33,036 nt of DNA from an uncultured Candidatus Saccharibacteria bacterium (GTDB lineage Bacteria > Patescibacteriota > Minisyncoccia > UBA6257 > 1-14-0-10-40-38). Below, piece after piece: positions 5,466 through 25,168 of the stretch. The DNA lies in NCBI GenBank assembly GCA_964434715.1, contig CAYSWC010000001.1, positions 1 through 33,036 on the forward strand. Direction: 5' to 3'. The position numbers were made by a program, and so were the translations under genes. The first letter of the stretch is position 1. Each line of letters begins with the position of its first letter. The notes under the pieces are model-generated. The model was not told the DNA's origin. It saw only the letters and a program-made list of their open reading frames with translations, and ran no database searches.

Positions 5466-7139
5466 TCAACTATTCCTTAACCTCACAAAAAACCGCGATC
5501 CCTGTCCTTCTCCCTCACTTTCTGCCCAAATTTCGCCGTGATGGGCGGTAACGATTTCCCGGGCGATGTAGAGGCCAAGGCCGGTGCCTTGAATTTCTTT
5601 CTTCACGCTCTCATCGCGGGTAAATCGCTCAAAAGCTTGGCTTTGCATCTCTTTGGACATTCCCCGACCGGTATCCTCGACTGTGATAAGCACAGTTTCT
5701 GGTTTCTGGTTGCTGGTTGTTGGTCGTTGGTCAACGGTTACTTTAACGTAACCGCGATCTGTATATTTAATGGCGTTATCAATGATATTTTGAATGACCT
5801 GCCGGATTTTTTCCGGATCAGCTTTGATTTTGATGGACGGCAGGGGCTGGTTGGTGATGGATAGTTTAGCATCAGCGCTTATTCTAATGTTCTTAAGAAC
5901 ATTAGAATAAGCTTGGAACTGCAAATCCAAACCTTTAGCCGCTGCCAAGGGTTTAAATTCCTCAACCATGCTAGAGAGCAAGGCCACAATATCAACCTCT
6001 TCAAACTTATATTCCATCTTGCCCTCTTCAATTTTTCTTAAATCCAAAAGATTATTGACCAAGACAATAGTCCGGTCAGCAGACTCTTTAATCTTCTTGG
6101 CTTTGGCTTTGGCCTCATCCGAGACCGGCCCGTAAGTGCCGTCAGAGATCAGCTCGGCAAAACCCTTAATCACCGCCATCGGCGACTTCACCTGATGTGA
6201 GGCAAAACTCAAAAACTCGGATTTTAACTGATCTAACTCCCGAAGTCTTGCATTCGCCGCTTCCAATTCTTTTGTCAATTTCTCTAATCTTTCCCGCTGT
6301 TCAACTTCTTTGAGTACGCTTTTTATTAGAAAAATACCAAAAGTAAAGAAAAGTATAAATATGACGATTCTAAGTATCAACTCAAAAGTATTTTTCGCTA
6401 CGAAAATCTCGAAAAGCGAAACAGACAGAATTACAAAAGTAAGGATCTCAGTCGCGATTGCTTTAACATTCAATAAATGATGACGTAAAATTGCATAGGC
6501 CATACCTACAAATGTTGGCAACATGAAAAGGGGCCCATAGATTATGAATGATGTATCTTTTAAGAAAATTACGAAAAGAAAATTGGTTAATATCAATAGG
6601 AAATAACTAAGAGAAACTCCAATAAGCATGGACCTCCATTGCATTCTTTCCAGGGTTTGTGCTTTTATAAATTTTCTTACAATCAAGATGATTCCAGATA
6701 TTAAAGAAATTACGACGACTAAGGCGAACAAAGGCATTAATGGTCCGGCTATTGGGACTATTCGATCATCAATCGCTTCAATCCTTGTAAAGACATAGGG
6801 CGAGACAGTTGCACCCATCGTTATAAGTAAAAGTAATAAGCTTGCTATAAATAAAGTTCTTTTAATCACTAACCCTCTATTGGGAAAATTGTAAGTAAAG
6901 ATAAAGAACAATACTGCATGGGGTGTAGCGAAAAATAACACAAGTCTAATCCAAAATAGTACTTGTGGTGGATTGATGTTTAAAGAAAAATAATTGGCGA
7001 TAGCCCACAATACAGTTGCGAGGGCGATAAGAAAAAAAAGGATATTACTGATGCTTTTCCGGTCGTGAAAATAAACGACAATACCAATGAAAAAAATCCC
7101 GAAGGCACTTACGAGTGTAATAGCTAAATCTGTAGGCAT
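5466..7139 (-). CDS. Sensor histidine kinase with a multi-TM N-terminal domain (HisKA_7TM-like), HisKA and HATPase_c
   Basis: About 280-aa hydrophobic N-terminus; H-box FLSFASHQVKSP; N-box NIIDNAIKYT; G1 EDTGRGM; G2 GTGLGLYIA. Confidence 0.95.
   Translation of the reverse strand: MPTDLAITLVSAFGIFFIGIVVYFHDRKSISNILFFLIALATVLWAIANYFSLNINPPQVLFWIRLVLFFATPHAVLFFIFTYNFPNRGLVIKRTLFIASLLLLLITMGATVSPYVFTRIEAIDDRIVPIAGPLMPLFALVVVISLISGIILIVRKFIKAQTLERMQWRSMLIGVSLSYFLLILTNFLFVIFLKDTSFIIYGPLFMLPTFVGMAYAILRHHLLNVKAIATEILTFVILSVSLFEIFVAKNTFELILRIVIFILFFTFGIFLIKSVLKEVEQRERLEKLTKELEAANARLRELDQLKSEFLSFASHQVKSPMAVIKGFAELISDGTYGPVSDEAKAKAKKIKESADRTIVLVNNLLDLRKIEEGKMEYKFEEVDIVALLSSMVEEFKPLAAAKGLDLQFQAYSNVLKNIRISADAKLSITNQPLPSIKIKADPEKIRQVIQNIIDNAIKYTDRGYVKVTVDQRPTTSNQKPETVLITVEDTGRGMSKEMQSQAFERFTRDESVKKEIQGTGLGLYIAREIVTAHHGEIWAESEGEGQGSRFFVRLRNS
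5696..5732. repeat. Five heptamer tandem repeats in frame within the HATPase domain
   Basis: tttctgg-tttctgg-ttgctgg-ttgttgg-tcgttgg; encodes DQRPTTSNQKPE. Confidence 0.8.
5877..5912. repeat. Perfect 36-bp palindrome inside the histidine kinase CDS
   Basis: gcttattctaatgttctt|aagaacattagaataagc; encodes AYSNVLKNIRIS. Confidence 0.92.
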
Positions 7140-7323: not shown

Positions 7324-7803
7324 ATGCCTAACTATTTTACCCCTAAGGATTTTGCCAAGTTACAAGAGAAAATCCGCAAGACTGAAGCTAAACTAGATGA
7401 AGCGAAACTACAGATAGGAGAAGCCTGTAACCAAGGATCGGATACTTTCCATGATAACTTTCCTTACGAAGAGGCTTTGCGGCAAGTAGCTTTTTGGTCT
7501 CGTAGGTTACAGGAATTCATAGATCTCCAGTGTGATGCTCAAATCGTTTATCCTAGCGAAGAGACAATAAGAGTTGCTATTAGTACAATAGTTACAATAG
7601 AAGATGTAGCTACACACGAGGAGGAAACCTATAGAATTGCTAGCTTCGGGATAGCGATTTACTCTGACGAGAAAGGTGTAGTCTCTTATAACTCCCCCCT
7701 AGGGCAATGCCTCCTGGGTGCGTGGAAAGGTGACATAAGAACCTTACGTCTTGGTGAAAAGATTCGTCAGCTAAGGGTGAAAAAAATCCAAAGCGGTGCT
7801 TAA
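7324..7803 (+). CDS. GreA/GreB family transcription factor with an atypical tip
   Basis: N-terminal coiled coil (YFTPKDFAKLQEK...DTFHDNFPYEEA) and C-terminal VSYNSPLGQCLLG motif. Confidence 0.85.
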   Translation: MPNYFTPKDFAKLQEKIRKTEAKLDEAKLQIGEACNQGSDTFHDNFPYEEALRQVAFWSRRLQEFIDLQCDAQIVYPSEETIRVAISTIVTIEDVATHEEETYRIASFGIAIYSDEKGVVSYNSPLGQCLLGAWKGDIRTLRLGEKIRQLRVKKIQSGA

Positions 7804-7834
7804 GTACTTAACAACTTGGTGCCGCTTATTTTTT
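7791..7834 (+). terminator. Putative intrinsic terminator
   Basis: aagcggtgcttaagt...acttggtgccgctt stem with G-U pairs, followed by ATTTTTT. Confidence 0.55.
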
Positions 7835-7929
7835 AAAATATGATCAGCGGTAAGAATTTAAGATCATTTAATAAGATCGTTCTAGGTCATTTATGAGATG
7901 ATTAAGAACTAGCAGAACATTAACCAACT

Positions 7930-7958
7930 TTTACAATTGAAAATAGACATGGTATTCT
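7930..7958 (+). promoter_or_regulatory. Promoter of the CYTH-CDA-HD operon
   Basis: TTTACA, 17 bp, TGgTATTCT (extended -10), about 30 nt before the ATG. Confidence 0.5.
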
Positions 7959-7987
7959 AAACTAAACCATTAAACAATTTCAAAAAT

Positions 7988-8560
7988 ATGCTGAACAAAT
8001 TAAAAAATCAAAAGAATATCGAGATCGAATATCGCTCAAGATTTAGTGAGGTCGATTATAAAAGACTCTTTGATTTCCTTACTCATCATGCCAAAAATCT
8101 TGGACAAGACGATAAGGATGTATTTTTTTTCATTATGCCAGATAAACTTCTCAAGGTGGTAAATGAGATTGCAAAAAAGAAAGCGAAGATTGTTCTTAAA
8201 CTTAATAAAATCGGTAAAGGAAGCGATTTTGAAGAATTGGAAATACCAATTCGGCAGGATAGCGTAATGCCGGCAGTAAGATTATTCAAACACCTGGAAC
8301 TGACTAATAATATCATGCATTCATTTCAAAAGAGGCATAATTTCTTTTATAGGGGGGTGGAAATAGCGCTTAAGCATAGTGATGAATGGGACTATCATGC
8401 TGAGTTAGAAACTGTTATCAGTAATACTAAAGATAAAAAAGATGCGATTGAGAAAATAGCTAAAGTTACGAAAGAATTAGATATACGCCTGATGTCAGAG
8501 AAGGAGTTACGAGAATTTACCCGTAAAGCTGAGATTAAATACAGGAGAAAAAGAATTTGA
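7988..8560 (+). CDS. CYTH-domain (triphosphate tunnel metalloenzyme) protein
   Basis: N-terminal EIEYR (ExExK-like), FEELEI, QKRHNF and HAELE motifs. Confidence 0.85.
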   Translation: MLNKLKNQKNIEIEYRSRFSEVDYKRLFDFLTHHAKNLGQDDKDVFFFIMPDKLLKVVNEIAKKKAKIVLKLNKIGKGSDFEELEIPIRQDSVMPAVRLFKHLELTNNIMHSFQKRHNFFYRGVEIALKHSDEWDYHAELETVISNTKDKKDAIEKIAKVTKELDIRLMSEKELREFTRKAEIKYRRKRI

Positions 8561-8570
8561 TAGAGCAACT

Positions 8571-9032
8571 ATGAAATTTGTAAATTATAGTTCGCTAAAA
8601 TCGCGGGAGAAAAGATTAATGAAAAAGGCTTTTGAGGCCGCAAAACGTTCTGTGACCTCTGCTAAACATGAGGTTGGATGCGCTATTTTAGACAACGAAG
8701 GTAACATATTCCTAGGCGCAACCAATGCAAGATCCCGAGCAATTGGATCAACTTGTGCAGAACGAATGGCGATGGATCAACTATATTTCCAGAGGGGAGG
8801 GGCACCAATATTTCTAGCTCTCGTTGGTAGATTTAATAGAAAGGGGTGGAAAGAAAGCTACATATGTACGCCTTGCGGTGTATGTCTAGAAATGTTTTCC
8901 GAAGTGATGCGTGATTTTCAAAAAAGGGATTTTAATTTTATCTGTCCTGCTTGGAACAAATCAAAAATTTTAAAAGTTTCCTTAAGCGAACTTTATCCTC
9001 AAATTGGCAAAGGTGATTGGGAAAGATTATAA
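8571..9032 (+). CDS. Cytidine deaminase family protein
   Basis: VGCAIL...GNIFLGATN, TCAERMA and TPCGVC zinc motifs (three-Cys type). Confidence 0.9.
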   Translation: MKFVNYSSLKSREKRLMKKAFEAAKRSVTSAKHEVGCAILDNEGNIFLGATNARSRAIGSTCAERMAMDQLYFQRGGAPIFLALVGRFNRKGWKESYICTPCGVCLEMFSEVMRDFQKRDFNFICPAWNKSKILKVSLSELYPQIGKGDWERL

Positions 9033-9044
9033 TAACCTGCTAAA

Positions 9045-9788
9045 ATGGTAAGTCTCGTCGATTTCGCAAAGAAAAATGAATTACCAAGTATTCAGTTTAT
9101 GGATCCGGCTACCTTAGATTGGATTAACTCTAACAGACCAGATGAATTAAAAAATTCTATTAAAAGATATTGTCCGCGGCCAGACCTTATACCTCAAATT
9201 GTAAAGTTATTACCTCTAAATGAATGGTTCTTTAATAACGAAATAATTGATTCCATCCATGGCTTAAGACATCTTTTAAGGGTAGCTTTTCTTGGAGCGA
9301 CACTGGATTTAGAAATAAAGCTTTCTCAAAAAAATATCATAAACATAATAATTGCGGCGCATCTACACGATATAAGGAGAATAGATGATAAAGGCGATCC
9401 TGGTCATGGCGAAAGAGCTGCCGTATGGTTTAAAGATAATTTAACAAAAATTACCGAATATTTCTCTCTAAATCTTGAAAGTGAAGATATTGAAGAAATA
9501 TTCTTTATGATCAGGTATCATGAAAATCCGTATACGGAAATATCGCATAAAGATGCTTATAAAAAATACAAGACTGTGATAGATATTATGAAAACAGCAG
9601 ACGCTCTCGATCGATATCGTCAACCAAAATTAAAATGGTGGATTAGTGATAATTATCTTGCATTAAAACCTAGCCTTTCAATGAAAAAATTCGCTTATGA
9701 CCTAGTAGTTGGAAGCGAGAGATTAAAATTGGATGGATTAGATAATACATCAAGTGTTTTAGATGCATTTAAAAAACTTCTATGCTAG
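9045..9788 (+). CDS. HD-domain metal-dependent phosphohydrolase
   Basis: IHGLRHLLRV, HLHDIRR, GHGERAA, RYHE, TADALDRYR. Confidence 0.88.
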   Translation: MVSLVDFAKKNELPSIQFMDPATLDWINSNRPDELKNSIKRYCPRPDLIPQIVKLLPLNEWFFNNEIIDSIHGLRHLLRVAFLGATLDLEIKLSQKNIINIIIAAHLHDIRRIDDKGDPGHGERAAVWFKDNLTKITEYFSLNLESEDIEEIFFMIRYHENPYTEISHKDAYKKYKTVIDIMKTADALDRYRQPKLKWWISDNYLALKPSLSMKKFAYDLVVGSERLKLDGLDNTSSVLDAFKKLLC

Positions 9789-11185
9789 AAAATTTACTTA
9801 ATAAATGGAGTGATGTTCACGTTTTCTATAATACCTTCACACACTCCTTGTCTCGTAATAAAACACGTATTGTTAACGACGAATTCCTCTGGAGAAATAA
9901 AATCTTTCAAGCAACTCATGGTCGTCTCTTAATCGAGAATAATTTCTTTAAATCTCTTAAGCAAAATTCGAAAATCTTTTTAGCCCACATTACTCCTAAT
10001 TTACATAATATTCTTGAAAAAAATCATCTCTTCCCAAGCAGTGGATGCCTTGTTGGAAGTATCTATTGCACCCCAATAGATCTTTCTGACGGAAAACTTA
10101 GACTCCACAATCTTGGCGAGTTTATTATAAATCATGAAATGCCAAAATTCTTAGGAAAAGAGTTAATTGCTAAGAATCAGCTCGGAATACTCGTGATTAG
10201 AATAGACTTGCCATCGCAAGCCCGAAATAACTTAATTGGAATTGACTATCTGCGGCTTGGGGAACTACATCTAGAAACATATAAAAATCTAGAATATCTC
10301 CTTTCTCTGGGCGAACGACATTTATTGGAGGATCTTTGTGCTGAACGTATTAGGAAGGCATCTGATTTTTTGAGTTTGTGTAATCGTAAATATTGGCTAA
10401 ATGAAAATGTTGATTCTGTAAACTTTCTCGATATGATGGTTAAGACTACAGAATATTTACCTATTCTCGGTTATTTTTACTTCGAAACTCTGGCTGAATT
10501 CTTAATGCTTTATCAAGATTGTAAAGAGGCAACTAACTACGATTCAATTGGAGAGTTTTGGACTCCGAGCCATAAGAGGATGGTGTTTTCTTTATTCCCA
10601 CAACTTCCAAGTAATTTCAGCCTTCGCCTTTTTAAACCCAAATTCCTAGATGTTGTTTCGTATTTGAAGCGTTATGGATTTTTTACGCATTTTAATACTG
10701 ATGAAATATCAAAATATCTATGTGATAGACTGGCTTTCTTAATAAACGCTCGATTCTTTAAAGAAGATGCAAAACTCATAGAATGGCATAAATTAGAATG
10801 GAAGTTTGACAATCTTACCCAATTTTTTGGTCCGCTACTAGGACACCTTATTCATCGCGAACTTCGTAATTTCGGGAGATATCCTCATTTCTATTTCTAT
10901 TTTGATCAGTTTAAAGCACTACAAATCTGGAATTATTGGAACTATATGCATATCGCAATCCCCTTTAATGGTGTCTTTCCAAAGGGCGAAGTTGGTATTA
11001 ACCCCGCCTATCCCGATCTTCGATATCGAATCTACCAAGGTAAACCCTACGAGAAAAACGGTTATATTTATCTTGAAATTGGGAAAGAATTGGATATCGA
11101 AATTGCTCCACAACTTATTAATTTGAGATTCACTACAATGCGTAATAAAGACATGCCCAGTGCCCGAGCTAATCTTCTTGAGTAA
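9782..11185 (+). CDS. Hypothetical protein, candidate ADP-ribosyltransferase-fold (H-Y-E type) enzyme with a large insert
   Basis: Long ORF overlapping the HD gene end. Pattern LAHIT..LHNIL...LFPS...GSIYCTP...ILVIRID...KGEVGINP. The CDS is well supported; the fold assignment is inference. Confidence 0.6.
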   Translation: MLENLLNKWSDVHVFYNTFTHSLSRNKTRIVNDEFLWRNKIFQATHGRLLIENNFFKSLKQNSKIFLAHITPNLHNILEKNHLFPSSGCLVGSIYCTPIDLSDGKLRLHNLGEFIINHEMPKFLGKELIAKNQLGILVIRIDLPSQARNNLIGIDYLRLGELHLETYKNLEYLLSLGERHLLEDLCAERIRKASDFLSLCNRKYWLNENVDSVNFLDMMVKTTEYLPILGYFYFETLAEFLMLYQDCKEATNYDSIGEFWTPSHKRMVFSLFPQLPSNFSLRLFKPKFLDVVSYLKRYGFFTHFNTDEISKYLCDRLAFLINARFFKEDAKLIEWHKLEWKFDNLTQFFGPLLGHLIHRELRNFGRYPHFYFYFDQFKALQIWNYWNYMHIAIPFNGVFPKGEVGINPAYPDLRYRIYQGKPYEKNGYIYLEIGKELDIEIAPQLINLRFTTMRNKDMPSARANLLE

Positions 11186-11197
11186 AAGTTAAATATT

Positions 11198-11956
11198 ATG
11201 AAAGGTAAAAAAAATCAAGAAAGTAAAGCTCTTAAAAAGATCGAGAATAATTTTGCCCTTTTTAAAAAACATGAAAACATTACTCATGGCTTTGGTAGAG
11301 TAGTCCGGAAACTTGAAAAGGAGATAACAGTACTACGCAGTCATTTAGAAGGCAAAGGCAATTGGGAAAAACAGAGAAAACACTTAGGCTCATCTGCCTT
11401 TGAATGTATACAAATCGGTGGTGGTCAGCATTACCTCCAAGATTTTCTAAATATCGATATTTTCCCTCCAGCCGATCTTATCTACGATGTTAGACAGGGC
11501 TTGCCCCTACCTGATAATTGTTGCACCTTTCTATTCTGTGAACATTTACTTGAGCATATTGATTACCCTGTTTCTATAGAAAAATTTTTATCAGAGTGTT
11601 TTCGGGTACTTAAAAAAGGTGGTCGTTTTGTGATTGGTGTACCAGATGGAGAGTTGGTTTTAAAAAATTATTGTAAAAATGATCAACTTTTTAAGGAAGA
11701 AATCATTAAGCGCTGGTACGGAAGACGCAAAATATCAAATTACATAAACAGTTATATAGACCTTGTTAATTATCATTTCAGGGATATGGATGACGATAAA
11801 ATTTATAATCCTCATTTGTGGGCGTATGATTATAAGAATTTATACTCATTGTTGAAAAAGGCGAGGTTTTCAAACATCAAAAAATGGAGTTTTAACAAAC
11901 TCATCGCAAATCCCAAGAGAAAATGGGGGAGTCTTTATGTCGTCGTAAATAAATAA
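11198..11956 (+). CDS. Class I SAM-dependent methyltransferase (type 11-like)
   Basis: IQIGGG..., LNIDI, DVRQGLPLPD, EHLLEHI, ECFRVLKKGG. Confidence 0.88.
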   Translation: MKGKKNQESKALKKIENNFALFKKHENITHGFGRVVRKLEKEITVLRSHLEGKGNWEKQRKHLGSSAFECIQIGGGQHYLQDFLNIDIFPPADLIYDVRQGLPLPDNCCTFLFCEHLLEHIDYPVSIEKFLSECFRVLKKGGRFVIGVPDGELVLKNYCKNDQLFKEEIIKRWYGRRKISNYINSYIDLVNYHFRDMDDDKIYNPHLWAYDYKNLYSLLKKARFSNIKKWSFNKLIANPKRKWGSLYVVVNK

Positions 11957-11976
11957 GGTCAAATTATTGTAGTAAA

Positions 11977-12618
11977 ATGGTGAGAATTTTTCGCATAAAT
12001 AAAGAACTATTTACCACTATTTTCCGCACTAATCATTGGGGATCAAAAGAATCTGTATCTGGTCCCGGTGCGGAAATGAAGCCGACGAGAAAAATAAGAA
12101 GAGTACTCCCCAAAATAATTAAGCGTTATCATATTCGAAGTATGCTTGATATTCCTTGCGGTGATTTTAATTGGATGAAAGCTGTAGATCTTCGAAGATT
12201 AGATGAATATACCGGTGCCGATATTGTGTCCGAACTAATTGCGTCAAATATTAAAAAATATAGCGACGGACAGAAAAAATTTATCGAGTTAGATATTATA
12301 AACAATCCCTTACCAAGGGTTGACCTTATTTTCTGTAGAGATTGTTTTGTGCATTTAAGTAATAAAGACATCTGCAAGGCTTTAAAAAATATAAAGAAAA
12401 GCGGTTCCGCATTTCTTCTAACTACTACGTTTATCCGTGAAGACAAAAATAAAGACACCAGGGAAGGTAAGTGGAGGCCTATCAATTTGAATATAAAACC
12501 TTTTAATTTAGCTCCTTTTATTGAATACATTAATACAGACTTTAGGGATGGAGGGAGAAATCATCCTGGGAATGGAATAGCAATTTGGAAAATCTCCGAT
12601 TTACCTGATAACTATTAA
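11977..12618 (+). CDS. Class I SAM-dependent methyltransferase
   Basis: WGSKESVSGPG, LDIPCGDFNWM, YTGADIV, DLIFCRDCFVHL. Confidence 0.88.
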   Translation: MVRIFRINKELFTTIFRTNHWGSKESVSGPGAEMKPTRKIRRVLPKIIKRYHIRSMLDIPCGDFNWMKAVDLRRLDEYTGADIVSELIASNIKKYSDGQKKFIELDIINNPLPRVDLIFCRDCFVHLSNKDICKALKNIKKSGSAFLLTTTFIREDKNKDTREGKWRPINLNIKPFNLAPFIEYINTDFRDGGRNHPGNGIAIWKISDLPDNY

Positions 12619-12678
12619 CTAACACATTTTTTCTAGGGTCACTTCCCGGACAATTTTAATAAGAAAAAGGAGGTTCTC

Positions 12679-13269
12679 TCACAACCTCCTTTTAATTATT
12701 TGGGCAAGCTGTTCGGGGGCTTTTTGCGGCATACCGTCAATATTCTCGATGTGATGGGAAGGGATTCTAAATGATTCAGACGCCTTCAACATCACCTCAG
12801 TAGACATAAGTTGTGCTCTTTTTATAAAATCAATCTTTTCTCGCAAAGATCTCTGTTCATTACTAAATAGACTACGGTTGATCCTTTTATTGATCAATTC
12901 ATCATAAAGAATCCGCCGCACGATTGATTCTGGGTTACCAATCAAAAGTATAAGTACTCTACAATAACTATACCATAGTCCATAGCTGGGAGCAATCTTT
13001 CCATTAAACACTTTGACGTAATGGGCTGTAACTATGGTTGTTTCTACCCCACTTTCTTTGCTTAAAGCACAGAAAAGATCTGTAAGAGCTCTTTCTTTCA
13101 CTTTCTTTGGAAGAATTCTTAGCTTGACGTAATCGCCGTCAGCGATACCAAGCCACTTCATGAGCTCTGAGGAACCGTCCAGTACACGCACCGATAACCT
13201 TTTCCGAAGCGCTTGTGCAATTGAGGTCTTACCAACGCCATTAACGCCGCCTAGAAAAAGCAAACCCAT
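12679..13269 (-). CDS. P-loop nucleoside monophosphate kinase-like protein (archaeal adenylate kinase-like)
   Basis: LFLGGVNGVGKTS, VTAHY, SIVRRI. Start moved to ATG 13269, which follows RBS AGGAGGA. Confidence 0.8.
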   Translation of the reverse strand: MGLLFLGGVNGVGKTSIAQALRKRLSVRVLDGSSELMKWLGIADGDYVKLRILPKKVKERALTDLFCALSKESGVETTIVTAHYVKVFNGKIAPSYGLWYSYCRVLILLIGNPESIVRRILYDELINKRINRSLFSNEQRSLREKIDFIKRAQLMSTEVMLKASESFRIPSHHIENIDGMPQKAPEQLAQIIKRRL

Positions 13270-13394
13270 TTTATCCTCCTTTTTGTAAATGTTCGTATAA
13301 ACTAATATAGCACGGAGTTCTAAGCATTGCAAATCAAGATTATTTCCTTATCTACTTTTATTTGCTGCCGGGTTTGAATTAACCCCTAAAGGAG

Positions 13395-14480
13395 TTACTG
13401 AATTATCGAATCTAATTTTAAGCTATATCTGCCTGAAGGTGTTTTTTTGCCGGTTGAGATTTGACGAATGAGATAGCACAAAACAGCGCCGCGCAGAAAG
13501 GATGATTCGGCCAACTGCGGTATACCGGCGAGTTTTGAACCAACGAGCAAAAATGACTTCTTTAATCTTTGGGTAAGATATTTCGTCCCCATAAAGTCTC
13601 GCGCCAAAAGCATTTTATTCTTAAAAGGCAAAGTTTTCAGTTTATCGCTCTTTGCAATATCAATTATGGATTGCTTAAGATATCCGCCTAAAAGCGGCAG
13701 CTCTGGATTCTGGTCAAATCTTTCAATATCAATAATCACATTCGGGCCGTTGCCGGTAACCATCACAACCGGGATTCGATACTGCCTGGCTTTTTCTCTT
13801 ATTAAAATTTTAAGCCTTAAATTATCCATCTCTTCAATTAATACATCTGTCCTGGGCTTTAAAAGGAATTCTTCTAGACTATCTGGTTTTATGCCGTCTC
13901 TAAAAACTTCTATTTTTGCGAAAGGATTAATTTCGTAAACTTGCCGCGCGGAAAGCACTGCCTTATTTAAACCGAGATCAGTTATGCTTGCTCTAAATCT
14001 ATTAAAATTGGTAAGCGATAAAACATCATTATCAGCAAATTTCATCTCAAGCCCTCCGCCTTCTAAGGCAAGGCACACTGCCGCCGGGTTGCCCACATTT
14101 AATCCCGCGATGCCGATTCTAAATTGAGCGAACTTTTTTTGGTCAGATGGTAAAACTAAATTTTCATTTCTTGAAGTCTTAAGGCGAAGATAGCTATCTT
14201 TTTCTAGTACATGAACTAAAGACGACTGCCATGAATAGTAAATCCATTTTCCCTGTTTCGGATCATTGCCATACTTTCTAGGTTCTCGCGTAAGAAGTTT
14301 AGGATTTTTAACTAAATCCAATTCTCTAAGCTGTTCAGAAAATTCATCTACGACATTTACAATCTTTTTCTGCTTTAATAAATTTCTTACCTTACTAAGA
14401 TCGTTAACTTTTTTAAAATCAAAAATCAACGGTTTATAAGAGTTATCGCGTGAATTTAGAAATTTACCAAAAATTTTCAT
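13395..14480 (-). CDS. ThiF/E1-like adenylyltransferase, Rv1355c-like, lacking the fused nitroreductase domain
   Basis: WIYYSW...VHVL...SRNENL N-terminal signature, IGIAGLNVG, ADNDVLSLTNFNR, NKAVLSARQVYEINP, EEMD, GIPQLA. Confidence 0.88.
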   Translation of the reverse strand: MKIFGKFLNSRDNSYKPLIFDFKKVNDLSKVRNLLKQKKIVNVVDEFSEQLRELDLVKNPKLLTREPRKYGNDPKQGKWIYYSWQSSLVHVLEKDSYLRLKTSRNENLVLPSDQKKFAQFRIGIAGLNVGNPAAVCLALEGGGLEMKFADNDVLSLTNFNRFRASITDLGLNKAVLSARQVYEINPFAKIEVFRDGIKPDSLEEFLLKPRTDVLIEEMDNLRLKILIREKARQYRIPVVMVTGNGPNVIIDIERFDQNPELPLLGGYLKQSIIDIAKSDKLKTLPFKNKMLLARDFMGTKYLTQRLKKSFLLVGSKLAGIPQLAESSFLRGAVLCYLIRQISTGKKTPSGRYSLKLDSIIQ

Positions 14481-15538
14481 GGTATCAGCTTTGCCTCAAC
14501 CGGATGACGCAAATTCGGCCTCTGTTCAAAATTCATATAACCGACGCAAAATAAAAGCTGTGCTACGAGGCCAGAATTTATAACCTTTTGCACTTGCTTG
14601 TATAAATCACCTATCTCTATTGAAGCTACAAAAATTGAGGTTTTGAGTTCCTTGGAATTTAATTCCAACGTTATCCGCTCAAATAATCTCCCCACCTCTA
14701 GCCAGCTTAAAGGAGAATTCTCTTTGGAGCTGATGATTAGGACGAGCGGTGCGGAACTGATACTTTTGTAATTAAGCGCTCCCACCGCTTTTCCGATATT
14801 AAAAAAACGGACTAGAGTAGGAAAAATCAGAGAAATCAAAGCCGGCATTCTTAAAGAATAACCGGGTATGCCCTCTCTCTTTTTTGAAAAACTGCTGTTC
14901 ATCCAAGAGGACATCTCTTTTCTAAAATTAGAGCTTTGGTAGGCAATTCTTAAACCTTCGGCGGTGAGTGTCGCTAATTTATTTATTTTTTCCTTATCGT
15001 GAACTAAATCGAGCCGTAATTCAGGAAATTTATTATCGAGCGACTGAATTTTTTTAATAATTTCTGATTCAACTGGTTTCTGCTCAAAAATACCTCTGAC
15101 ATTAACTCTTTTTGGTACGGCATCCAAAATATCTGCTAACTCTTTGCTAATTTGTATATCTTTTCTCTCTAAATCTCCGAAAGTAACTTCGGCAACTAAA
15201 TTATCCTTTAAGATATAATTCAAATTTCTAAAAACTTTAAAATAACTTGCAGCCACAATAATATTTTCCAAAAGACAGCCAAAACTTATATAGAGATCTC
15301 GCTTAATTGGATCGGCTTCCTTGATTGTATATTTCTCGGAGTCATAAAAAATCTTGCAAGAGTCATTTTCTATTTTAAAAAGCCAAGGTTGGCTATTATG
15401 CGTTGAAGGGGCTAAAATGCCGTATCGTAAAATAAACTTTATTTTCTCAAAAGGAGCCTTGAGTTTGAAAAAATCACCCTTATTTATATTCCGAAGTTCA
15501 AAATCTAGATTGGACATTAATCTTATTTCTTTACCCAT
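14477..15538 (-). CDS. Acg-type nitroreductase family FMN oxidoreductase
   Basis: LAPSTHNSQPWLF, DPIKRDLYISFGCLLEN, KRVNVR, EVGRLFER. Confidence 0.88.
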   Translation of the reverse strand: MGKEIRLMSNLDFELRNINKGDFFKLKAPFEKIKFILRYGILAPSTHNSQPWLFKIENDSCKIFYDSEKYTIKEADPIKRDLYISFGCLLENIIVAASYFKVFRNLNYILKDNLVAEVTFGDLERKDIQISKELADILDAVPKRVNVRGIFEQKPVESEIIKKIQSLDNKFPELRLDLVHDKEKINKLATLTAEGLRIAYQSSNFRKEMSSWMNSSFSKKREGIPGYSLRMPALISLIFPTLVRFFNIGKAVGALNYKSISSAPLVLIISSKENSPLSWLEVGRLFERITLELNSKELKTSIFVASIEIGDLYKQVQKVINSGLVAQLLFCVGYMNFEQRPNLRHPVEAKLIP

Positions 15539-17028
15539 TTTTGTTTGATGCCAGGTTTGAAGTGAAGCTGATGCTCGGCGGGCCAGAAAACGAGCTTGGG
15601 CAGGGCTCGCTCTTTTAAGAAGTTATAGAGTTCGCGGTATTCCGAGTTTTTAAGCCGGAGATTGGCAACGACCTGGCTCAAAAGTATCTTCTGAACTTTT
15701 TTGGGTATCTTGCGATGTTTGCGAAGTTCAAGATTGACTTCCAGATATTGATTTTGCCGACGATCGTATTTGGTAATCAGGGTAAGCTTTCCGGTAAGGT
15801 ACTTATTCATCGGCGGTTCAATTAAAACCTCGCGAATCGTCTCCGGATAAACTTGAAGACCATAAAGAGTCGTTGCCATATCAACTCGCTCATAGATATA
15901 GACGAAGGGTAATTTATATATAAAATTTGCTATGCCGTGTGCGCGCGCCGACTTAAAGAAATCAATGCCGTGATTTCGGCATTTCTCAATCGCTTCTTTT
16001 AAAGTAAGCACCCCGCCGTGATCCCCGATGCCGTAACGGATAAGCGGTATAGCATTATCGCCAGTAAGAAAAAGTTCCCCTCCCTGTTCATCAAAACTTA
16101 TGAAACGAGGAATATATTGGGCCAGCGTTGGAGTACGCTGGATTTGATGAAAAATATCGGCAAATAGACGCCAACGTCCCATGGCAAGCTGCCGAATCAA
16201 AATACTCGCCGGAGTCTCAAATGCCATCACGCCAATATCGGCGCTGCCGTATATATTCATGGTGTCAAGGAGAGGATTTGTTATATTGACATGTTTCGCT
16301 AGATAGTCACGGAATTTTTCGGTGAAGGCTTCAGCTGCAAAAATAAAGCGAATATTCAACTTCCGGATATTGATACCGTTATGCGGTGCCTCATCAATAA
16401 TATCCTTAAGAAACGGCGCGTAACCTACTAAAATAATCTCTTTGAAATGATTCCCGATCCGCCGTAAGGCATTAAAAATTTCACGCTTGTTAATGCCCGG
16501 CGTAAGTATAGAAACCGGATAGCCGGCCTCGCGCATAAACTCAAACGACTGATAAGTGATCACCCCGCCAATCCAAACACCCATCCCAAAACAAACCAAA
16601 ATAAGAGTTGGTCCCTGCACACTCTTCTCGCTATTCCGAAAAAAAAGCTCGTGCGTCACCGCTGCCTGCCAATCAACTCGATAATCGCGGGCAAAGTAGA
16701 AAGGTTCGCCGGTCGAGCCGGAAGTTGCGGTAAAAACAAGTGGATGCTTAAGCGTACCATCCCAGCAAAGTTTTTCGAACGGGTATTCGCGGAGATAATT
16801 TTTTTTACTGGTAGGCGGTACTAAACGAAGATCGCCTGAAGTCTTAATTTTATCGGGTTGAATCTTGTTTTTCTTCAAAAAATCGCGATAGGCCGGCACC
16901 CGGCGCGCCGCTTCGTGAAATAATTTTATCGGTCGCAACGCCTGCTCACGCAGCCAAAAAGACTCGGGTTTCCGGCGTATAAGCTGGATTACAGCATTGG
17001 TGGCTGTCTGAACCTGATTCACTTTCAT
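15523..17028 (-). CDS. Phenylacetate-CoA ligase (PaaK)-like adenylate-forming enzyme
   Basis: VPAYRDFL, TSGSTGEP, YGSAD and PLIRYGIGDHG adenylation motifs. Confidence 0.9.
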   Translation of the reverse strand: MKVNQVQTATNAVIQLIRRKPESFWLREQALRPIKLFHEAARRVPAYRDFLKKNKIQPDKIKTSGDLRLVPPTSKKNYLREYPFEKLCWDGTLKHPLVFTATSGSTGEPFYFARDYRVDWQAAVTHELFFRNSEKSVQGPTLILVCFGMGVWIGGVITYQSFEFMREAGYPVSILTPGINKREIFNALRRIGNHFKEIILVGYAPFLKDIIDEAPHNGINIRKLNIRFIFAAEAFTEKFRDYLAKHVNITNPLLDTMNIYGSADIGVMAFETPASILIRQLAMGRWRLFADIFHQIQRTPTLAQYIPRFISFDEQGGELFLTGDNAIPLIRYGIGDHGGVLTLKEAIEKCRNHGIDFFKSARAHGIANFIYKLPFVYIYERVDMATTLYGLQVYPETIREVLIEPPMNKYLTGKLTLITKYDRRQNQYLEVNLELRKHRKIPKKVQKILLSQVVANLRLKNSEYRELYNFLKERALPKLVFWPAEHQLHFKPGIKQKWVKK

Positions 17029-17036
17029 TAATCATA

Positions 17037-18122
17037 TTATGCCACAAAGGAGGGGGTTTTTCCATTGAGAAAAATGTCTTCAGCCAAACGATCGGCAACT
17101 CGGTAGGGCGGCTCTCGCCTCTGCTGGGAAAAGAGATAGATGGTGCGGAGCGTATCCCTAAGATGTTCTATCCGGTGCAAAACTCGCTTTTTGTTATAGC
17201 CGCCTTCATCCCGTTCATCCATAACATTGATCAAGCCGCCGGCATTGGCCACGTAATCGGGGACGTAGAAAATATTTCGTTTAAAAAGCAGGTCGCCGAC
17301 TTCTGGCGACGCCAATTGATTGTTGGCCGCCCCGCAAATTATCTTGGCGCTAATTTCATAAACATTCTTGTCGGTAATATCATTGCCCAACGCGCAGGGA
17401 GAAAAAACTTCAGCCGGCTCTCCGTGAATCACCTCGGGATCAGCAACTTTAACTTGAGGGAATCTTGCCTTGACTGCATCGGTGACTGCGGTTTTTATAT
17501 CCGCAATAACGACTTCAGCGCCGGCTCCAACAAGAAGTTTTAATAATTCGGCGCCTACTTTACCGATGCCTTTTATCGCAATCCTGATGTTGAAAAGTTC
17601 ATTGATGCCGGTAATTTCAGCAAGAGCAACCTGAATTGTATAAAAAGTGCTTAGGGCGGCATAAGGCGAAGGATCGCCGGCGACCCCTCTCCGGCCGTTA
17701 AAAAAATCGGATTCTTCAAACATAATCTGCACATCATCTTCAGTAATACCTGAATCTTCGCCGGTTGTAAAAATTCCTTCCAATTTATTGATAATACGTG
17801 CGTAAGATCGAAGTAGTTCTTCGTTTTTATCTTTATCGGGGTTGCCGATAATCACTGCCTTGCCGCCGCCGTGGCGCACGCCGGCCAAAGCACACTTATA
17901 AGTCATAGCGCGGGAAAGTTTTAAAACATCGGCTAGTGCTTCTTTTTCGTTCGCGTAAGGAAACATCCTCGTGCCGCCGGTGGCTGGCCCTAAATTATCG
18001 TTATGAATCGCAATAAAGCCGCGCAAATTGTTTGCGGCATCTTCAAATCGGTAAACCGCTTTGTGGTTATCAAATTCCTGGATATCGGCAAGGTTTTTTA
18101 CCGGTTCCAAAATAGCAGCCAT
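17037..18122 (-). CDS. Leu/Phe/Val family amino-acid dehydrogenase
   Basis: LGPATGGTRM, LSRAMTYKCA, GGGKAVI, TGEDSG, GIGKVG, PCALG, GAANNQL, PDYVANAGG. Confidence 0.93.
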   Translation of the reverse strand: MAAILEPVKNLADIQEFDNHKAVYRFEDAANNLRGFIAIHNDNLGPATGGTRMFPYANEKEALADVLKLSRAMTYKCALAGVRHGGGKAVIIGNPDKDKNEELLRSYARIINKLEGIFTTGEDSGITEDDVQIMFEESDFFNGRRGVAGDPSPYAALSTFYTIQVALAEITGINELFNIRIAIKGIGKVGAELLKLLVGAGAEVVIADIKTAVTDAVKARFPQVKVADPEVIHGEPAEVFSPCALGNDITDKNVYEISAKIICGAANNQLASPEVGDLLFKRNIFYVPDYVANAGGLINVMDERDEGGYNKKRVLHRIEHLRDTLRTIYLFSQQRREPPYRVADRLAEDIFLNGKTPSFVA

Positions 18123-18148: not shown

Positions 18149-18198
18149 AGTATAGCACAAAAAAGGCGGCTTTGGGCCGCCTAGGGTTTTTGAGGATT
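18149..18198 (-). promoter_or_regulatory. Terminator-like hairpin overlapping the promoter of the dehydrogenase operon; copy 2 of the ~40-bp repeat
   Basis: Minus strand AGGCGGC-CCAAA-GCCGCCT-TTTTT followed directly by GTGCTATACT (extended -10 at 18154-18149). Confidence 0.6.
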
Positions 18199-18300: not shown

Positions 18301-20091
18301 CTAAACTTCTAAAAATCCTCCGGATTGGTGACTCCACAGTTTAGCGTAAAGCCCTTTTTGCTTTATGAGCTTATTATGAGTACTGTCTTGGACAATTTTT
18401 CCTTGGTTAAGAACAATAATCCTGTCCAAGTGTTTTATGGTTGATAGGCGGTGCGCAATGACTAGTGCTGTCTTGTCTTTCATTAGTTCCCACAAGCCCT
18501 CCTGAATATACTTTTCGGATTCCGAGTCCAGAGAACTCGTGGCCTCGTCCAGTATCAGTATTGGAGAATTTTTAAGTAAGGCGCGGGCAATGGCTATTCG
18601 TTGTCGTTGTCCGCCGGAGAGTTTAATGCCACGCTCACCAACCAGTGTCTCGTAACCTTGCCTTAGTTGCGCTATAAATTCGTCGGCATGGGCAAGTTTG
18701 GCCGCCTTTACAACGTCTTCTTTTGAGGCTCCTTCATTGCCGTAAGCAATATTCTCAAAAAGCGACCTATGAAACAAGAGGGGTTCTTGCGGCACGTAGG
18801 CAATCGTTTGACGTAAAGATGCTTGCGTCACCTCGTTAATATTTTGCCCATCAATAGTAATGCTCCCAGATTGCAAGTCAACAAATCTTAGTAAAAGCTT
18901 GGTAATGGTTGTTTTGCCTCCGCCGCTTGGACCCACTAAACCGACTTTCTCTTTAGCTTTAATATCCAAGCTAAAATTATTTAAAAACGAGCCTTTTGTG
19001 TTTTGGTCCCCGCTGTATCTGAAGTTAACCCGGTTAAACTGAATACCGGCAGTAGTTACCTTCAAGGATTTCGCGTTCGGCCGGTCTTGGACCGCCGGCG
19101 GATTAAGAAACATTTGAGTAAATTCGGCGGCTTCACTAATGGAGGACTCAATGTGCCTGTAGGTCCTGCTAACCTCCCATAAGATTCGCGTGACGAGGGA
19201 ATAGTATGAGAAAACAACGATTATCACGCCAGCTTGCAGTCCCAGCCGCTGTACAAAAAAGATGGCCAAAATCAACCCAAAAACGTTGGTTATTACGTAA
19301 ATGGGCGACATCAGAATGTCAAAGCGGAGATTTTGGTAATCCGCGGCTTTCTTAAACTTGGAAGTAAAGTCGTCTACGTAACGTCCATACGCGTCATATT
19401 CCTGCTTCTCTTTAGAAAACGACTTAATAGCCATCATATTTGTCATTGAATCTGATAACCTGCCAGCTGTTTTACTGCTGGCGTCATGCCGAAGAGCGAC
19501 GAGTTTGGAGCGCCGGCGAATAATTGGCAATCCGGCTGTAATCCCAATTACTATCCAGAGAACCAAAACAAGCGGGATCCAGGGAGAATAACGCCATAAG
19601 ACTACTACCGCAAAAAGTATCGGGAAGATGTTGGTGACAACGTTAAAGACCAGCGTATCTGTGAATACTTCAAAACTTCGCCCGAAGGCCAACCCCTTTT
19701 TAGTTAACGAACCGACGAAGTTGTCGGTGTAGAAGTTGTAATCACGCTCCATGAGTCGATGGAAAACGGTTCTGCTCAAACTGTTAATTCCTTTCGTTTC
19801 AATCTTAATCAAGAAATTCATACCAATTCGCCAAAAGGCTTCGCCCAAGAGCCATAACCCGCCAAACAGCAAGATATAACTGCCGGCAGTATTAATTGAA
19901 ATTTCGCCCTGGGCTATAAAAATATTTAAGAGTCTCGCCACTATGAGTGGAGGAACAAAAAATACCAATATTGTGCCTATGGCAGGCAAGAGAAAACCAA
20001 TACCTACGTACCAAGGATAAGTTTTATACTGACGCCAGTAATCACGCAATACCTGGCGTACTGCTTCGCCTGTAATAACTCTTTTCTTCAT
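18301..20091 (-). CDS. ABC exporter, fused permease/ATPase (MdlB/MsbA-like)
   Basis: TM N-terminal half; Walker A GPSGGGKT, LSGGQRQR, ILILDEATS, IAHRLST. Confidence 0.95.
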   Translation of the reverse strand: MKKRVITGEAVRQVLRDYWRQYKTYPWYVGIGFLLPAIGTILVFFVPPLIVARLLNIFIAQGEISINTAGSYILLFGGLWLLGEAFWRIGMNFLIKIETKGINSLSRTVFHRLMERDYNFYTDNFVGSLTKKGLAFGRSFEVFTDTLVFNVVTNIFPILFAVVVLWRYSPWIPLVLVLWIVIGITAGLPIIRRRSKLVALRHDASSKTAGRLSDSMTNMMAIKSFSKEKQEYDAYGRYVDDFTSKFKKAADYQNLRFDILMSPIYVITNVFGLILAIFFVQRLGLQAGVIIVVFSYYSLVTRILWEVSRTYRHIESSISEAAEFTQMFLNPPAVQDRPNAKSLKVTTAGIQFNRVNFRYSGDQNTKGSFLNNFSLDIKAKEKVGLVGPSGGGKTTITKLLLRFVDLQSGSITIDGQNINEVTQASLRQTIAYVPQEPLLFHRSLFENIAYGNEGASKEDVVKAAKLAHADEFIAQLRQGYETLVGERGIKLSGGQRQRIAIARALLKNSPILILDEATSSLDSESEKYIQEGLWELMKDKTALVIAHRLSTIKHLDRIIVLNQGKIVQDSTHNKLIKQKGLYAKLWSHQSGGFLEV

Positions 20092-22155: not shown

Positions 22156-22638
22156 ATGAAGCAAATTACAAGGCAGTATACAATTATCAAATCAAATTAC
22201 CGTAAAGGCTTAATTTCTCAAAATTTCGCCCGCAATGTTCTTTCGGGTCTTTCAAAAAAGCAAAAGGCTATTGCTTCAAAATACTTCTATGATGCTCGTG
22301 GTGATAAAATTTTTGAGCGCATTATGAAGCTTAAAGAATATTATCCAACTAGATGCGAATTAGAAATTTTAGAAAATTTTAAAGATGCGATTGCTGATTT
22401 CTTGCCCTATCAACGTTTTAATCTAATAGATCTTGGTCCGGGTGATGGAAGTAAGTCAGAAATCCTGATTAATCATTTTCTAAAAAAGGGTTTGCGCTTT
22501 GATTATGTGCCGATTGATACGATTGTACATTTCCACGCGGGAAATAGTTTCCGAATTAATCCGCGCAATGAAATTGGGATTAGCCGCAATCCAATGAGCA
22601 ACTTCACGTTCTTCTTGAGCAAGTGCCGGGAAAATTGA
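22156..22638 (+). pseudogene. egtD: Truncated L-histidine N-alpha-methyltransferase (EgtD-like); homology ends at about 22518
   Basis: GLSKKQKAIASKYFYDARGDKIFERI...EYYPTRCE, IDLGPGDGSKS, YVPID, then unrelated sequence. Full EgtD is about twice this length or more. Confidence 0.85.
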
Positions 22639-23388: not shown

Positions 23389-24782
<1,394 letters not shown>

Positions 24783-24787
24783 GGCGC

Positions 24788-25168
24788 TTAGTGCGCCAGG
24801 AAGGCTTTGGTTTTTTGAACAATCTCTTCCAAGTCCTGACTTTTAAGCAGATATTCGTAAGCGCCCAGTTCTTTGGCAAAACGCTGGTCGTTTTTATAAA
24901 TCTCGGGTTGGGGATCGCCAAAAGCGGTCAAAAGTATAATCTTGATCGTTTTGGTAGCCGGATCTTCGCGCAGTTTAAGCATGGCCTGAATGCCGTCCAT
25001 TTTAGGCATCTTAACATCCATCATAATAATATCCGGCAGAAAGACCTTTGCTTTCTCTATGCCTTCGCTTCCGTCATAGGCTACAGCAACCTCAAACCCG
25101 CTGGCTGTAAATTTAGTCGTCAGCACCTCGGTGAAATCCTTGTCGTCGTCAACAATTAAGACCTTCAT
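24788..25168 (-). CDS. Single-domain response regulator (receiver)
   Basis: VLIVDDD, PDIIMMDVKMPKMDG, ILLT, YLLK. Confidence 0.93.
   Translation of the reverse strand: MKVLIVDDDKDFTEVLTTKFTASGFEVAVAYDGSEGIEKAKVFLPDIIMMDVKMPKMDGIQAMLKLREDPATKTIKIILLTAFGDPQPEIYKNDQRFAKELGAYEYLLKSQDLEEIVQKTKAFLAH

Follow-up and report, generated by a model that had tools for sequence, protein, structure and literature searches.

Oxazolone synthetases were discovered between 2020 and 2025; what they do for their hosts has yet to be settled (PMC12856293). In OxzAB of Pseudoalteromonas rubra (bioRxiv 10.1101/2020.06.11.147165), TyzACB of Mycobacterium tuberculosis (PMC10404671) and TrzAS (PMC12856293), the last being the N-acyl tryptazolone pathway Rv1356c/Rv1355c with homologs in M. 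smegmatis and Rhodococcus jostii RHA1, an N-acyltransferase using acyl-coenzyme A (acyl-CoA) forms an N-acyl aromatic amino acid, a ThiF-like enzyme cyclizes it with ATP and a flavin oxidase desaturates it with O2, according to the parts of these reports available to us. Rv1355c is identical with TrzS (PMC12856293, available part). In this study, we analyzed a contig of 33,036 nt from an uncultured Candidatus Saccharibacteria bacterium (CAYSWC010000001.1 of assembly GCA_964434715.1; the whole stretch is called the window hereafter), in which four tightly coupled genes encode a predicted amino-acid dehydrogenase (P0001), a PaaK-fold adenylating ligase (P0002), an Acg-like flavin-dependent oxidase (P0003) and a ThiF-like enzyme of the Rv1355c/TrzS type (P0004). 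The host is a groundwater bacterium with a tiny genome, of which 793 kb on 56 contigs are available (genome G000; 86% complete), and Patescibacteria are regarded as biosynthetically minimal. A literature search revealed no paper on this cassette; the available text of the TrzAS, TyzACB and OxzAB papers mentions no ligase partner, deaminating enzyme, kinase or Patescibacteria, and the supplements of the oxazolone papers might include Patescibacteria sequences.

We consider it very likely that the four genes form one small-molecule pathway related to the oxazolone synthetases. With regard to the chemistry, our preferred reading, to which we assign a probability of roughly 0.5, is that a deaminated acid would be joined by the ligase to an amino acid and that the resulting N-acyl amino acid would be converted to an oxazolone, all independently of CoA. 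The window encodes a cyclase of the ThiF clade and an adjacent flavin oxidase, both features of oxazolone synthetases, and no N-acyltransferase. Since the acyltransferase is a defining feature, the cassette is, as judged from its sequences, better described as a variant of these systems than as a member.

As far as TrzAS is described in the available text, the window shares with it a cyclase matching NF005901 and an oxidase of the nitroreductase superfamily, and also the conserved Asp of the ATP site and the Arg residues of the oxidase. In contrast to TrzAS, cyclase and oxidase are separate proteins, the oxidase gene comes first and the oxidase is more Acg-like; instead of a TrzA-type acyltransferase, a PaaK-fold ligase and a dehydrogenase are encoded, and in related genomes a seven-transmembrane (7TM) histidine kinase is linked to the cassette. 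In M. tuberculosis the cyclase TyzB and the oxidase TyzC are also split, and the logic proposed here, leading from an N-acyl amino acid via ATP-dependent cyclization and desaturation to an oxazolone, is that of TyzACB and OxzAB, the acyltransferases of which (TyzA, OxzA), unlike anything in the window, use an acyl-CoA donor; both comparisons refer to the available parts of the respective papers.

Organization of the operon

The first-pass annotation of the window had described four coupled genes with an 8-nt gap or overlaps, and the list of open reading frames (ORFs) agrees with this at exact coordinates (Table 1). P0001 and P0002 are separated by 8 nt (17029-17036), P0002 and P0003 overlap by 16 nt (15523-15538), and P0003 and P0004 by 4 nt (14477-14480). 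Its assignment of the products to Leu/Phe/Val dehydrogenases, PaaK-like enzymes, Acg-type nitroreductases and Rv1355c-like ThiF proteins was upheld by Pfam, NCBIfam and Foldseek. Upstream of the dehydrogenase gene, a terminator-like hairpin is followed by a TG-extended -10-like element, which was read in the sequence as a consensus match only; because of these two elements the four genes probably start a transcript of their own. In the entire window, promoter-like matches were no more frequent than expected from shuffled sequence (19 vs 17.0). A second terminator-like hairpin, located beyond the ThiF gene and the following gene for an AAA_17-like protein, likely represents the end of the transcription unit, while membership of the AAA_17-like gene in this unit is uncertain.

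Table 1. Features of the window (positions in nt; aa, amino acids).
Feature	Position	Strand	Size	Basis or remark
P0001, predicted NAD-type Leu/Phe-family amino-acid dehydrogenase, first operon gene	17037-18122	minus	361 aa	ORF list and Pfam
P0002, predicted PaaK-fold adenylating ligase, uncurated family of ~500 aa	15523-17028	minus	501 aa	AlphaFold model and Foldseek
P0003, Acg-like flavin-dependent oxidase, nitroreductase superfamily	14477-15538	minus	353 aa	NCBIfam
P0004, putative Rv1355c/TrzS-type ThiF-like ATP-dependent cyclase	13395-14480	minus	361 aa	NCBIfam
Terminator-like hairpin between ABC exporter and dehydrogenase genes	18164-18182	minus		7 pairs, 6 of them GC, T-tail; consensus match only
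Terminator-like hairpin after AAA_17-like gene	12665-12693	minus		11 pairs, readable on both strands; consensus match only
7TM-sensor histidine kinase	5466-7139	minus		Pfam HisKA_7TM, HisKA, HATPase_c
Two tandem receiver-only response regulators	24381-25168	minus	133 and 126 aa	NCBIfam receiver matches
P-loop AAA_17-like protein, downstream of ThiF	12679-13332	minus	217 aa	Pfam AAA_17 26 bits, below cut-off
MsbA-like ABC exporter, directly upstream of operon	18301-20091	minus		Pfam ABC_membrane and ABC_tran; TIGR02204 359 bits
Low-GC block (0.35) between ThiF and kinase genes	7324-12618	plus		GreA-like protein, 190-aa ORF of no known function, dCMP-deaminase-like protein, HD protein, 467-aa ORF of no known function, two methyltransferases
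Protein with M23 peptidase domain and right-handed beta-helix region	1167-4475	minus	1102 aa	
ORF with EgtD-type match	22156-22638	plus	160 aa	
Release factor	25309-26073	plus	254 aa	RF1 models
Protein with ThyX (Thy1) stretches	28797-30497	minus	566 aa	Pfam and TIGR02170

Predicted enzymes

P0001 contains both domains of the family in Pfam, ELFV_dehydrog_N and ELFV_dehydrog. Its top NCBIfam match, the Trp dehydrogenase ScyB (NF035922), scores 292.4 bits and is thus below the cut-off of 600, and among the solved relatives leucine dehydrogenase (LeuDH, 3vpx) is closest with 274 bits, followed by tryptophan dehydrogenase (5b37) with 236 and phenylalanine dehydrogenase (PheDH, 1c1d) with 162 bits. 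In an alignment of 32 cassette-linked homologs of at least 320 residues, the catalytic residues K76, K88 and D123 are invariant, and D208, indicating an NAD-type cofactor site, is found in 30 of the 32. P0001 therefore has the catalytic Lys/Lys/Asp set and the NAD-type site in common with the Leu, Phe and Trp dehydrogenases (3vpx, 1leh, 1c1d, 5b37; ScyB). We take an NAD-type Asp such as D208 to be a feature of catabolic LeuDH. Unlike LeuDH, P0001 has Gly (G121, 32/32) at the position of A113 and Leu (L297, 27/32) at that of V291, and unlike ScyB it remains under the equivalog cut-off. Gly and Leu at these positions presumably correspond to G124 and L307 of PheDH, and since such PheDH-like residues replace those of LeuDH, the sequence suggests a bulkier, hydrophobic substrate.

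P0002 has no Pfam match, and no curated family covers it. The PaaK models TIGR02155 (52.6 bits, cut-off 646.3) and NF041878 (51.7 bits, cut-off 700) are both missed, although source annotations name its homologs phenylacetate-CoA ligase. Using an AlphaFold (AF2) model with a predicted local distance difference test score (pLDDT) of 83.6, Foldseek returned PaaK1 (2y27) as top match (E 2.5e-21; template modeling (TM) scores TMq 0.65 / TMt 0.76), then BT_0428 (4r1m), followed by NatL2 (6tm4), AjiA1 (6wuq) and ClxA (9s45). The adenylation motifs are present, with the TSGSTG-P loop, D336 and K495 being invariant in the ligase homologs. The model thus points to a PaaK-fold adenylating ligase, which shares the fold (Foldseek E 2.5e-21 to 7e-15), the P-loop, the ribose Asp and the C-terminal Lys with PaaK-family ligases, but is about 70 residues longer than these and only 14-19% identical to them. 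According to the available parts of the sources, NatL2, AjiA1 and ClxA are PaaK-fold enzymes making esters or amides rather than CoA thioesters, and NatL2 and ClxA show that this fold can form esters and amides without CoA. The presence of these three CoA-independent enzymes among the structural matches of P0002 agrees with the statement of the first-pass annotation that some PaaK-like enzymes form amides.

At least 2079 ligase homologs were found at E<=0.001 among 8000 candidates scored, the best 120 of which show 54-76% identity, and at E<=1e-30 the homologs represent 485 clusters of a library clustered at 50% identity. Look-alikes of about 500 aa with TM scores of 0.94-0.95 also occur among ESM Atlas clusters, with Cyanobacteriota and Actinomycetota as commonest known phyla; the ligase family may thus not be confined to Patescibacteria.

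P0004 matches the Rv1355c family model NF005901 with 289 bits over model positions 6-339, i.e. its N-terminal ThiF half, whereas other ThiF-type models reach at most 56 bits, with ThiF (52.8 bits, cut-off 159), TcdA (43.3, cut-off 304) and MoeB (32.3, cut-off 449) all below their cut-offs. Over about 96% of its length it is 32-37% identical to fused ThiF-oxidase proteins of the "Rv1355c family"; among solved structures, TcdA comes closest in sequence with 42 bits. P0004 therefore appears to belong to the Rv1355c/TrzS-type ThiF family, and its anticipated grouping with Rv1355c/TrzS and not with MoeB/TcdA was borne out both by the scores (289 vs 32-56 bits) and by the identity to the Rv1355c-family fusions. 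In an alignment of 96 ThiF sequences, including 26 fused Rv1355c-family proteins, R104, N105, G126, G130, D150, D152, N158, N160, R161, K173 and D219 are kept, as are D45, W79 and W84 of an N-terminal extension. The conserved positions include those of the ATP site, D219 among them. D219 aligns to the Asp of the TcdA motif and, by its position and not by a direct alignment, would be the equivalent of Asp217 of TrzS. According to the available part of the TrzS report, loss of Asp217 abolishes cyclization (PMC12856293).

P0003 matches the Acg-family FMN oxidoreductase model NF047509 with 187 bits (E 5.6e-55; cut-off 199) and the C-terminal oxidase half of the Rv1355c model with 66 bits. In an alignment of 86 sequences, which includes the fused oxidase halves, A43, P44, S45, N48, Q50, P51 and W52 of an APSxxNxQPW motif as well as R144 and R148 are kept. 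Prediction of a ThiF-oxidase complex resulted in a score of 0.00 with controls not run and carries no weight either way.

Conservation of the cassette in Patescibacteria

For the analysis of related loci, one genome per species was scanned, yielding 464 relatives among 598 pattern matches, of which the best 80 loci were kept; where the records give a lineage for these, it is a group of the Patescibacteria or candidate phyla radiation (CPR). In the resulting 81 loci (80 related ones and the window), ORFs were called and clustered, and counts were limited to loci with enough flanking sequence. Co-occurrence was analyzed in a sample of 401 genomes spread evenly over the phylum, with thresholds of E<=1e-20 for the ligase and E<=1e-25 for ThiF.

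In loci with at least 2.5 kb downstream of the ligase, ThiF was found with the ligase in 66 of 68, and both ThiF and oxidase in 60 of 68. The order ligase-ThiF-oxidase-kinase occurs in 27 loci and the order of the window, ligase-oxidase-ThiF-kinase, in seven. In the 401-genome sample, 43 genomes have the ligase, 40 ThiF and 36 both, so that the cassette is an accessory trait of about one tenth of the sampled genomes with co-occurring parts. In the related loci, it often sits among housekeeping genes (DnaK/DnaJ, TrpRS, release factor). The grouping of the genes is more than chance because they recur in the 80 related Patescibacteria loci, co-occur in the genome sample and are found as fusions; conservation of the four genes together outside the window, by which the first-pass annotation proposed to check its account, is thus given.

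The position upstream of the ligase, in the following called the slot, is variable. Within 400 nt upstream of the ligase, 73 loci with at least 1.1 kb of upstream sequence carry an ELFV dehydrogenase in 26 cases, a HisC-like class I/II aminotransferase in ten (eight of them on the same strand), an IlvE class IV aminotransferase in three (366 bits, over its cut-off) and ApbE in two. At least one of the dehydrogenase and the two aminotransferases is present in 51 of the 81 loci. Ammonia-lyases with a 4-methylideneimidazole-5-one (MIO) group (PF00221) were matched in ten of the 401 sample genomes, and in G015, G319, G384 and G397, i.e. in 4 of the 36 cassette genomes, the lyase gene adjoins that of the ligase or ThiF. 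By family assignment, four unrelated enzymes thus share the slot, all of which are predicted to yield an acid without alpha-amino group from an amino acid. This fits a deaminated acid as ligase substrate, and fits less well a role of the slot enzyme as supplier of an amino-acid acceptor. The earlier assumption that the dehydrogenase product feeds the ligase gains support from the slot swaps and the dehydrogenase-ligase fusions; the dehydrogenase itself is not fixed (26/73 loci), and the chemistry is that predicted from the families. As a side observation, an ApbE flavin-transferase lies near the upstream side of the ligase in three loci (L049, L054 and L081; within 400 nt in two), so that covalent flavinylation of the oxidase is a possibility in some lineages.

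Natural fusions were sought among the ligase representatives, and four long proteins were found to be full-length according to Pfam and BLAST: a dehydrogenase-ligase fusion (P0208, 847 aa), a dehydrogenase-ligase-ThiF fusion (P0293, 1242 aa), a ligase-ThiF fusion (P0220, 863 aa) and a ThiF-ligase fusion (P0294, 880 aa). Assembly accidents are unlikely, since the P0208 sequence is identical on four contigs with four NCBI accessions and P0293 is present on two contigs. ThiF and oxidase are fused in locus L078 (733 aa), and outside the phylum, too, the long relatives of ThiF combine it with an oxidase; they carry the name "Rv1355c family", and two have a GNAT domain in addition. Taking the ligase-centered and the ThiF-oxidase fusions together, all four enzymes encoded in the window are, by their domain assignments, linked by fusion somewhere.

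Link to a 7TM histidine kinase

The window also contains a histidine kinase gene about 6 kb from the operon, outside of 13395-18122, which is absent from the account of the first-pass annotation. Its product clusters with kinases of 60 of the 81 loci. Of the 57 loci with at least 5 kb downstream of the ligase, 52 have a kinase gene of the same family in this downstream region and on the same strand. The usual position is about 2.2 kb past the ligase, directly behind ThiF and oxidase; in the window the distance between ligase and kinase is 8384 nt, the largest in the set. It is the only such 7TM kinase found in G000. In the 401-genome sample, a 7TM sensor is present in 33 of the 36 cassette genomes compared to 65 of the 365 others, and the strongest sensor matches are mostly cassette-linked. 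The two tandem receiver-only response regulators cluster with Response_reg ORFs of 24 of the 81 loci and are possible partners of the kinase, with neighborhood being their link to the cassette.

The operon of the window also shows a step in base composition. GC contents are 0.468 and 0.451 for the dehydrogenase and ligase genes versus 0.355 and 0.369 for the oxidase and ThiF genes, which are therefore about 10 GC points lower, and the GC content at third codon positions is 0.46-0.47 versus 0.34. Since the oxidase precedes ThiF, the GC content drops within the operon and the kinase is the most distant of the set, the sequence suggests that, in the window, rearrangement or replacement has affected the downstream half of the cassette. 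The GC step by itself hints at an exchange or separate acquisition of the oxidase-ThiF pair.

Proposed pathway and alternatives

According to the preferred reading, the NAD-type dehydrogenase with its Leu/Phe-like pocket would deaminate a hydrophobic amino acid to the 2-oxo acid, which the PaaK-fold ligase would adenylate and, with no CoA involved, couple to another amino acid via the amino group of the latter. This step would stand in for the acyl-CoA-dependent N-acyltransferases OxzA, TyzA and TrzA. The ThiF-like enzyme would then adenylate the free alpha-carboxylate, so that the amide oxygen could close a 5(4H)-oxazolone ring, and the flavin oxidase would desaturate the bond from C-alpha to C-beta. 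The product would probably be a diffusible or membrane-active molecule. Because the 7TM kinase is encoded immediately downstream in most related genomes, it may sense this product, or synthesis may be controlled through it.

The statement of the first-pass annotation that an acyltransferase is missing was confirmed. None was found among the window ORFs or among recurrent neighbors in the 81 loci, and acyltransferases of the N-acyl-amino-acid-synthase family (PF13444) were absent from all five cassette genomes searched, which include one complete chromosome and one single-contig genome. In the same five genomes, no match above cut-off was obtained for CoaE, which was found in 10 of 14 control genomes, nor for CoaD or Pta.

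Several observations weigh against the CoA-independent oxazolone pathway. Among the 401 genomes, seven have the ligase without ThiF and four ThiF without the ligase, and in 30 of the 81 loci the ELFV dehydrogenase and both aminotransferases are missing. P0003 stays just under the curated cut-off (187 vs 199 bits), reaches no more than 66 bits with the oxidase half of Rv1355c and shares only about 25% identity with the oxidases encoded where the order is the commoner ligase-ThiF-oxidase. GNAT genes are present in three of the five cassette genomes, one of them in G000 elsewhere on the contig, which makes some use of acyl-CoA likely, and scavenged CoA is compatible with missing CoA synthesis. 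G000 is also only 86% complete. It is also conceivable that the dehydrogenase or aminotransferase provides the accepting amino acid. With respect to signaling, the kinase lies outside the operon in the window, and 7TM kinases of this family are more widespread than the cassette (98/401 genomes). Furthermore, groundwater bacteria of this kind are presumably anaerobes for the most part. The known oxazolone oxidases need O2, as stated in the available parts of the reports (PMC12856293, PMC10404671).

Alternatively, the same four enzymes may constitute one pathway in which the ligase uses another acceptor (a hydroxyl group, ammonia or another amine), in which the dehydrogenase or aminotransferase makes the acceptor for a scavenged acyl acid, or in which ThiF and oxidase form a different heterocycle instead of a 4-alkylidene oxazolone, e.g. 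a six-membered ring via the 2-oxo group. We regard this as possible, if rather unlikely: the nearest CoA-independent structural relatives of the ligase make, according to the available descriptions, esters as well as amides, the oxidase is divergent and Acg-like, and dehydrogenases and aminotransferases are reversible; on the other hand, an MIO ammonia-lyase, a class which normally runs towards deamination, is found in this slot in 4 of the 36 cassette genomes, the dehydrogenases have the NAD-type Asp D208 (30/32) that we assume for catabolic LeuDH, and ThiF is closest to enzymes which, in the available text, make oxazolones. A catabolic or energy-yielding route, in which a deaminated amino acid is passed to an ordinary aryl- or acyl-CoA ligase and ThiF and oxidase are unrelated to it, would agree with phenylacetate-CoA ligases being the best fold and sequence matches of P0002 and with the source annotations. 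However, it is improbable in view of the 52.6 bits to the PaaK model with its cut-off of 646, of CoaE and CoaD not being found in the five cassette genomes, and of the absence of paa genes, a 2-oxoacid oxidoreductase or a decarboxylase from the window ORFs and the recurrent neighbors; it would also leave the ligase-ThiF fusions and the near-obligate linkage with ThiF unexplained.

ThiF-like and nitroreductase-fold enzymes also occur in azole-peptide systems, and an E1-like protein with a SagB-like dehydrogenase might act on a precursor peptide exported by the ABC transporter, as in ribosomally synthesized and post-translationally modified peptides. The exporter and an ORF of 133 aa without family assignment, located just upstream on the same strand, would suit such a system. 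Nevertheless, we give it very little credit, since there is no YcaO match in G000 at 86% completeness, the 81 loci have no recurrent small ORF, the exporter is behind the terminator-like hairpin and present in 15 of 81 loci only, the deaminating partner enzymes are typical of small-molecule metabolism and ThiF groups in the small-molecule Rv1355c clade. It is equally far-fetched that P0004 is a housekeeping E1 enzyme activating a sulfur carrier (ThiF/MoeB) or forming ct6A in tRNA (TcdA). In favor of this are TcdA as the closest solved structure in terms of sequence (42 bits) and the frequent location of the cassette among the DnaK/DnaJ, TrpRS and release factor genes. However, none of the ThiF, MoeB and TcdA models (32-56 bits) reaches its cut-off, compared to 289 bits for Rv1355c, and G000 (again at 86% completeness) has no ThiS/MoaD match and no E1-like match besides P0004. 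The distribution is also too patchy for a core function, the ligase being present in 43 of 401 genomes.

Neighboring genes and other observations

The MsbA-like exporter might export the product, a weak link in view of homologs in only 15 of the 81 loci and of the terminator-like hairpin that separates it from the operon. The AAA_17-like gene has no NCBIfam match and is not conserved across the 80 related loci. It was rejected as pathway member, being unlike the cytidylate-kinase-like gene that adjoins the cassette of L062. In the region 7324-13332, only the 190-aa ORF was matched in the 80 related loci, namely in a single one (L052, 40% identity). One methyltransferase of the low-GC block matches a phage methyltransferase family with 188 bits. 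For this block, PADLOC and PHROGs gave weak methyltransferase-type matches only, from which no defense system could be named. Scans of the window for tRNAs and Rfam families gave no match. Among sequencing runs, three DNA runs of groundwater metagenomes from a single study were listed, one of them possibly the source of this DNA, and none of RNA.

The release factor is matched by RF1 models from about position 98 onwards (354 bits, cut-off 400) and thus is without the N-terminal ~100 residues (domain 1). Homologs of similar length (about 240-258 aa) are encoded in 15 of the 81 loci, pointing to a short release factor as the normal form in these lineages. The 566-aa protein has ThyX stretches at 336-526 (Pfam) and 138-286 (TIGR02170) and possibly represents a tandem-duplicated flavin-dependent thymidylate synthase. 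The 160-aa ORF matches only positions 2-95 of 304 of an EgtD-type histidine methyltransferase family and may be a gene fragment, and the large M23/beta-helix protein is possibly a cell-wall-degrading surface protein.

Implications

Pairs of a small-molecule synthase and a polytopic histidine kinase are known from bacterial signaling, as exemplified by CqsA/CqsS and LuxM/LuxN. By analogy only, the cassette resembles them in that a synthase gene stands beside a gene for a histidine kinase with a multi-pass sensor lacking a periplasmic domain; in contrast to these pairs, the regulators nearby are receiver-only, there is no homology between these pairs and the cassette, and sensing of the product is a conjecture here. 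Since the kinase is linked to the cassette in relatives, signaling is plausible, and we put it forward as a tentative role of the product. More doubtful is the complete circuit, in which a CoA-independent oxazolone-type autoinducer, built from two amino acids, one of which is deaminated to give the acyl part, would be sensed by the dedicated 7TM kinase acting with receiver-only regulators.

If the proposed pathway is true, an acyl-CoA-dependent acyltransferase would be replaced by an ATP-dependent ligase fed by a deaminating enzyme, which would be new enzymology, with a PaaK-fold N-acyl-amino-acid ligase in organisms in which CoA synthesis was not found, and the product would be a rare specialized metabolite of Patescibacteria. 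The dehydrogenase-ligase-ThiF fusions are handy one-polypeptide targets for biochemistry. The tight linkage to the kinase provides the testable hypothesis that oxazolones are signals; if the complete circuit exists, no self-contained system of chemical communication would have been described earlier in the CPR, and a first physiological role would be assigned to oxazolones.

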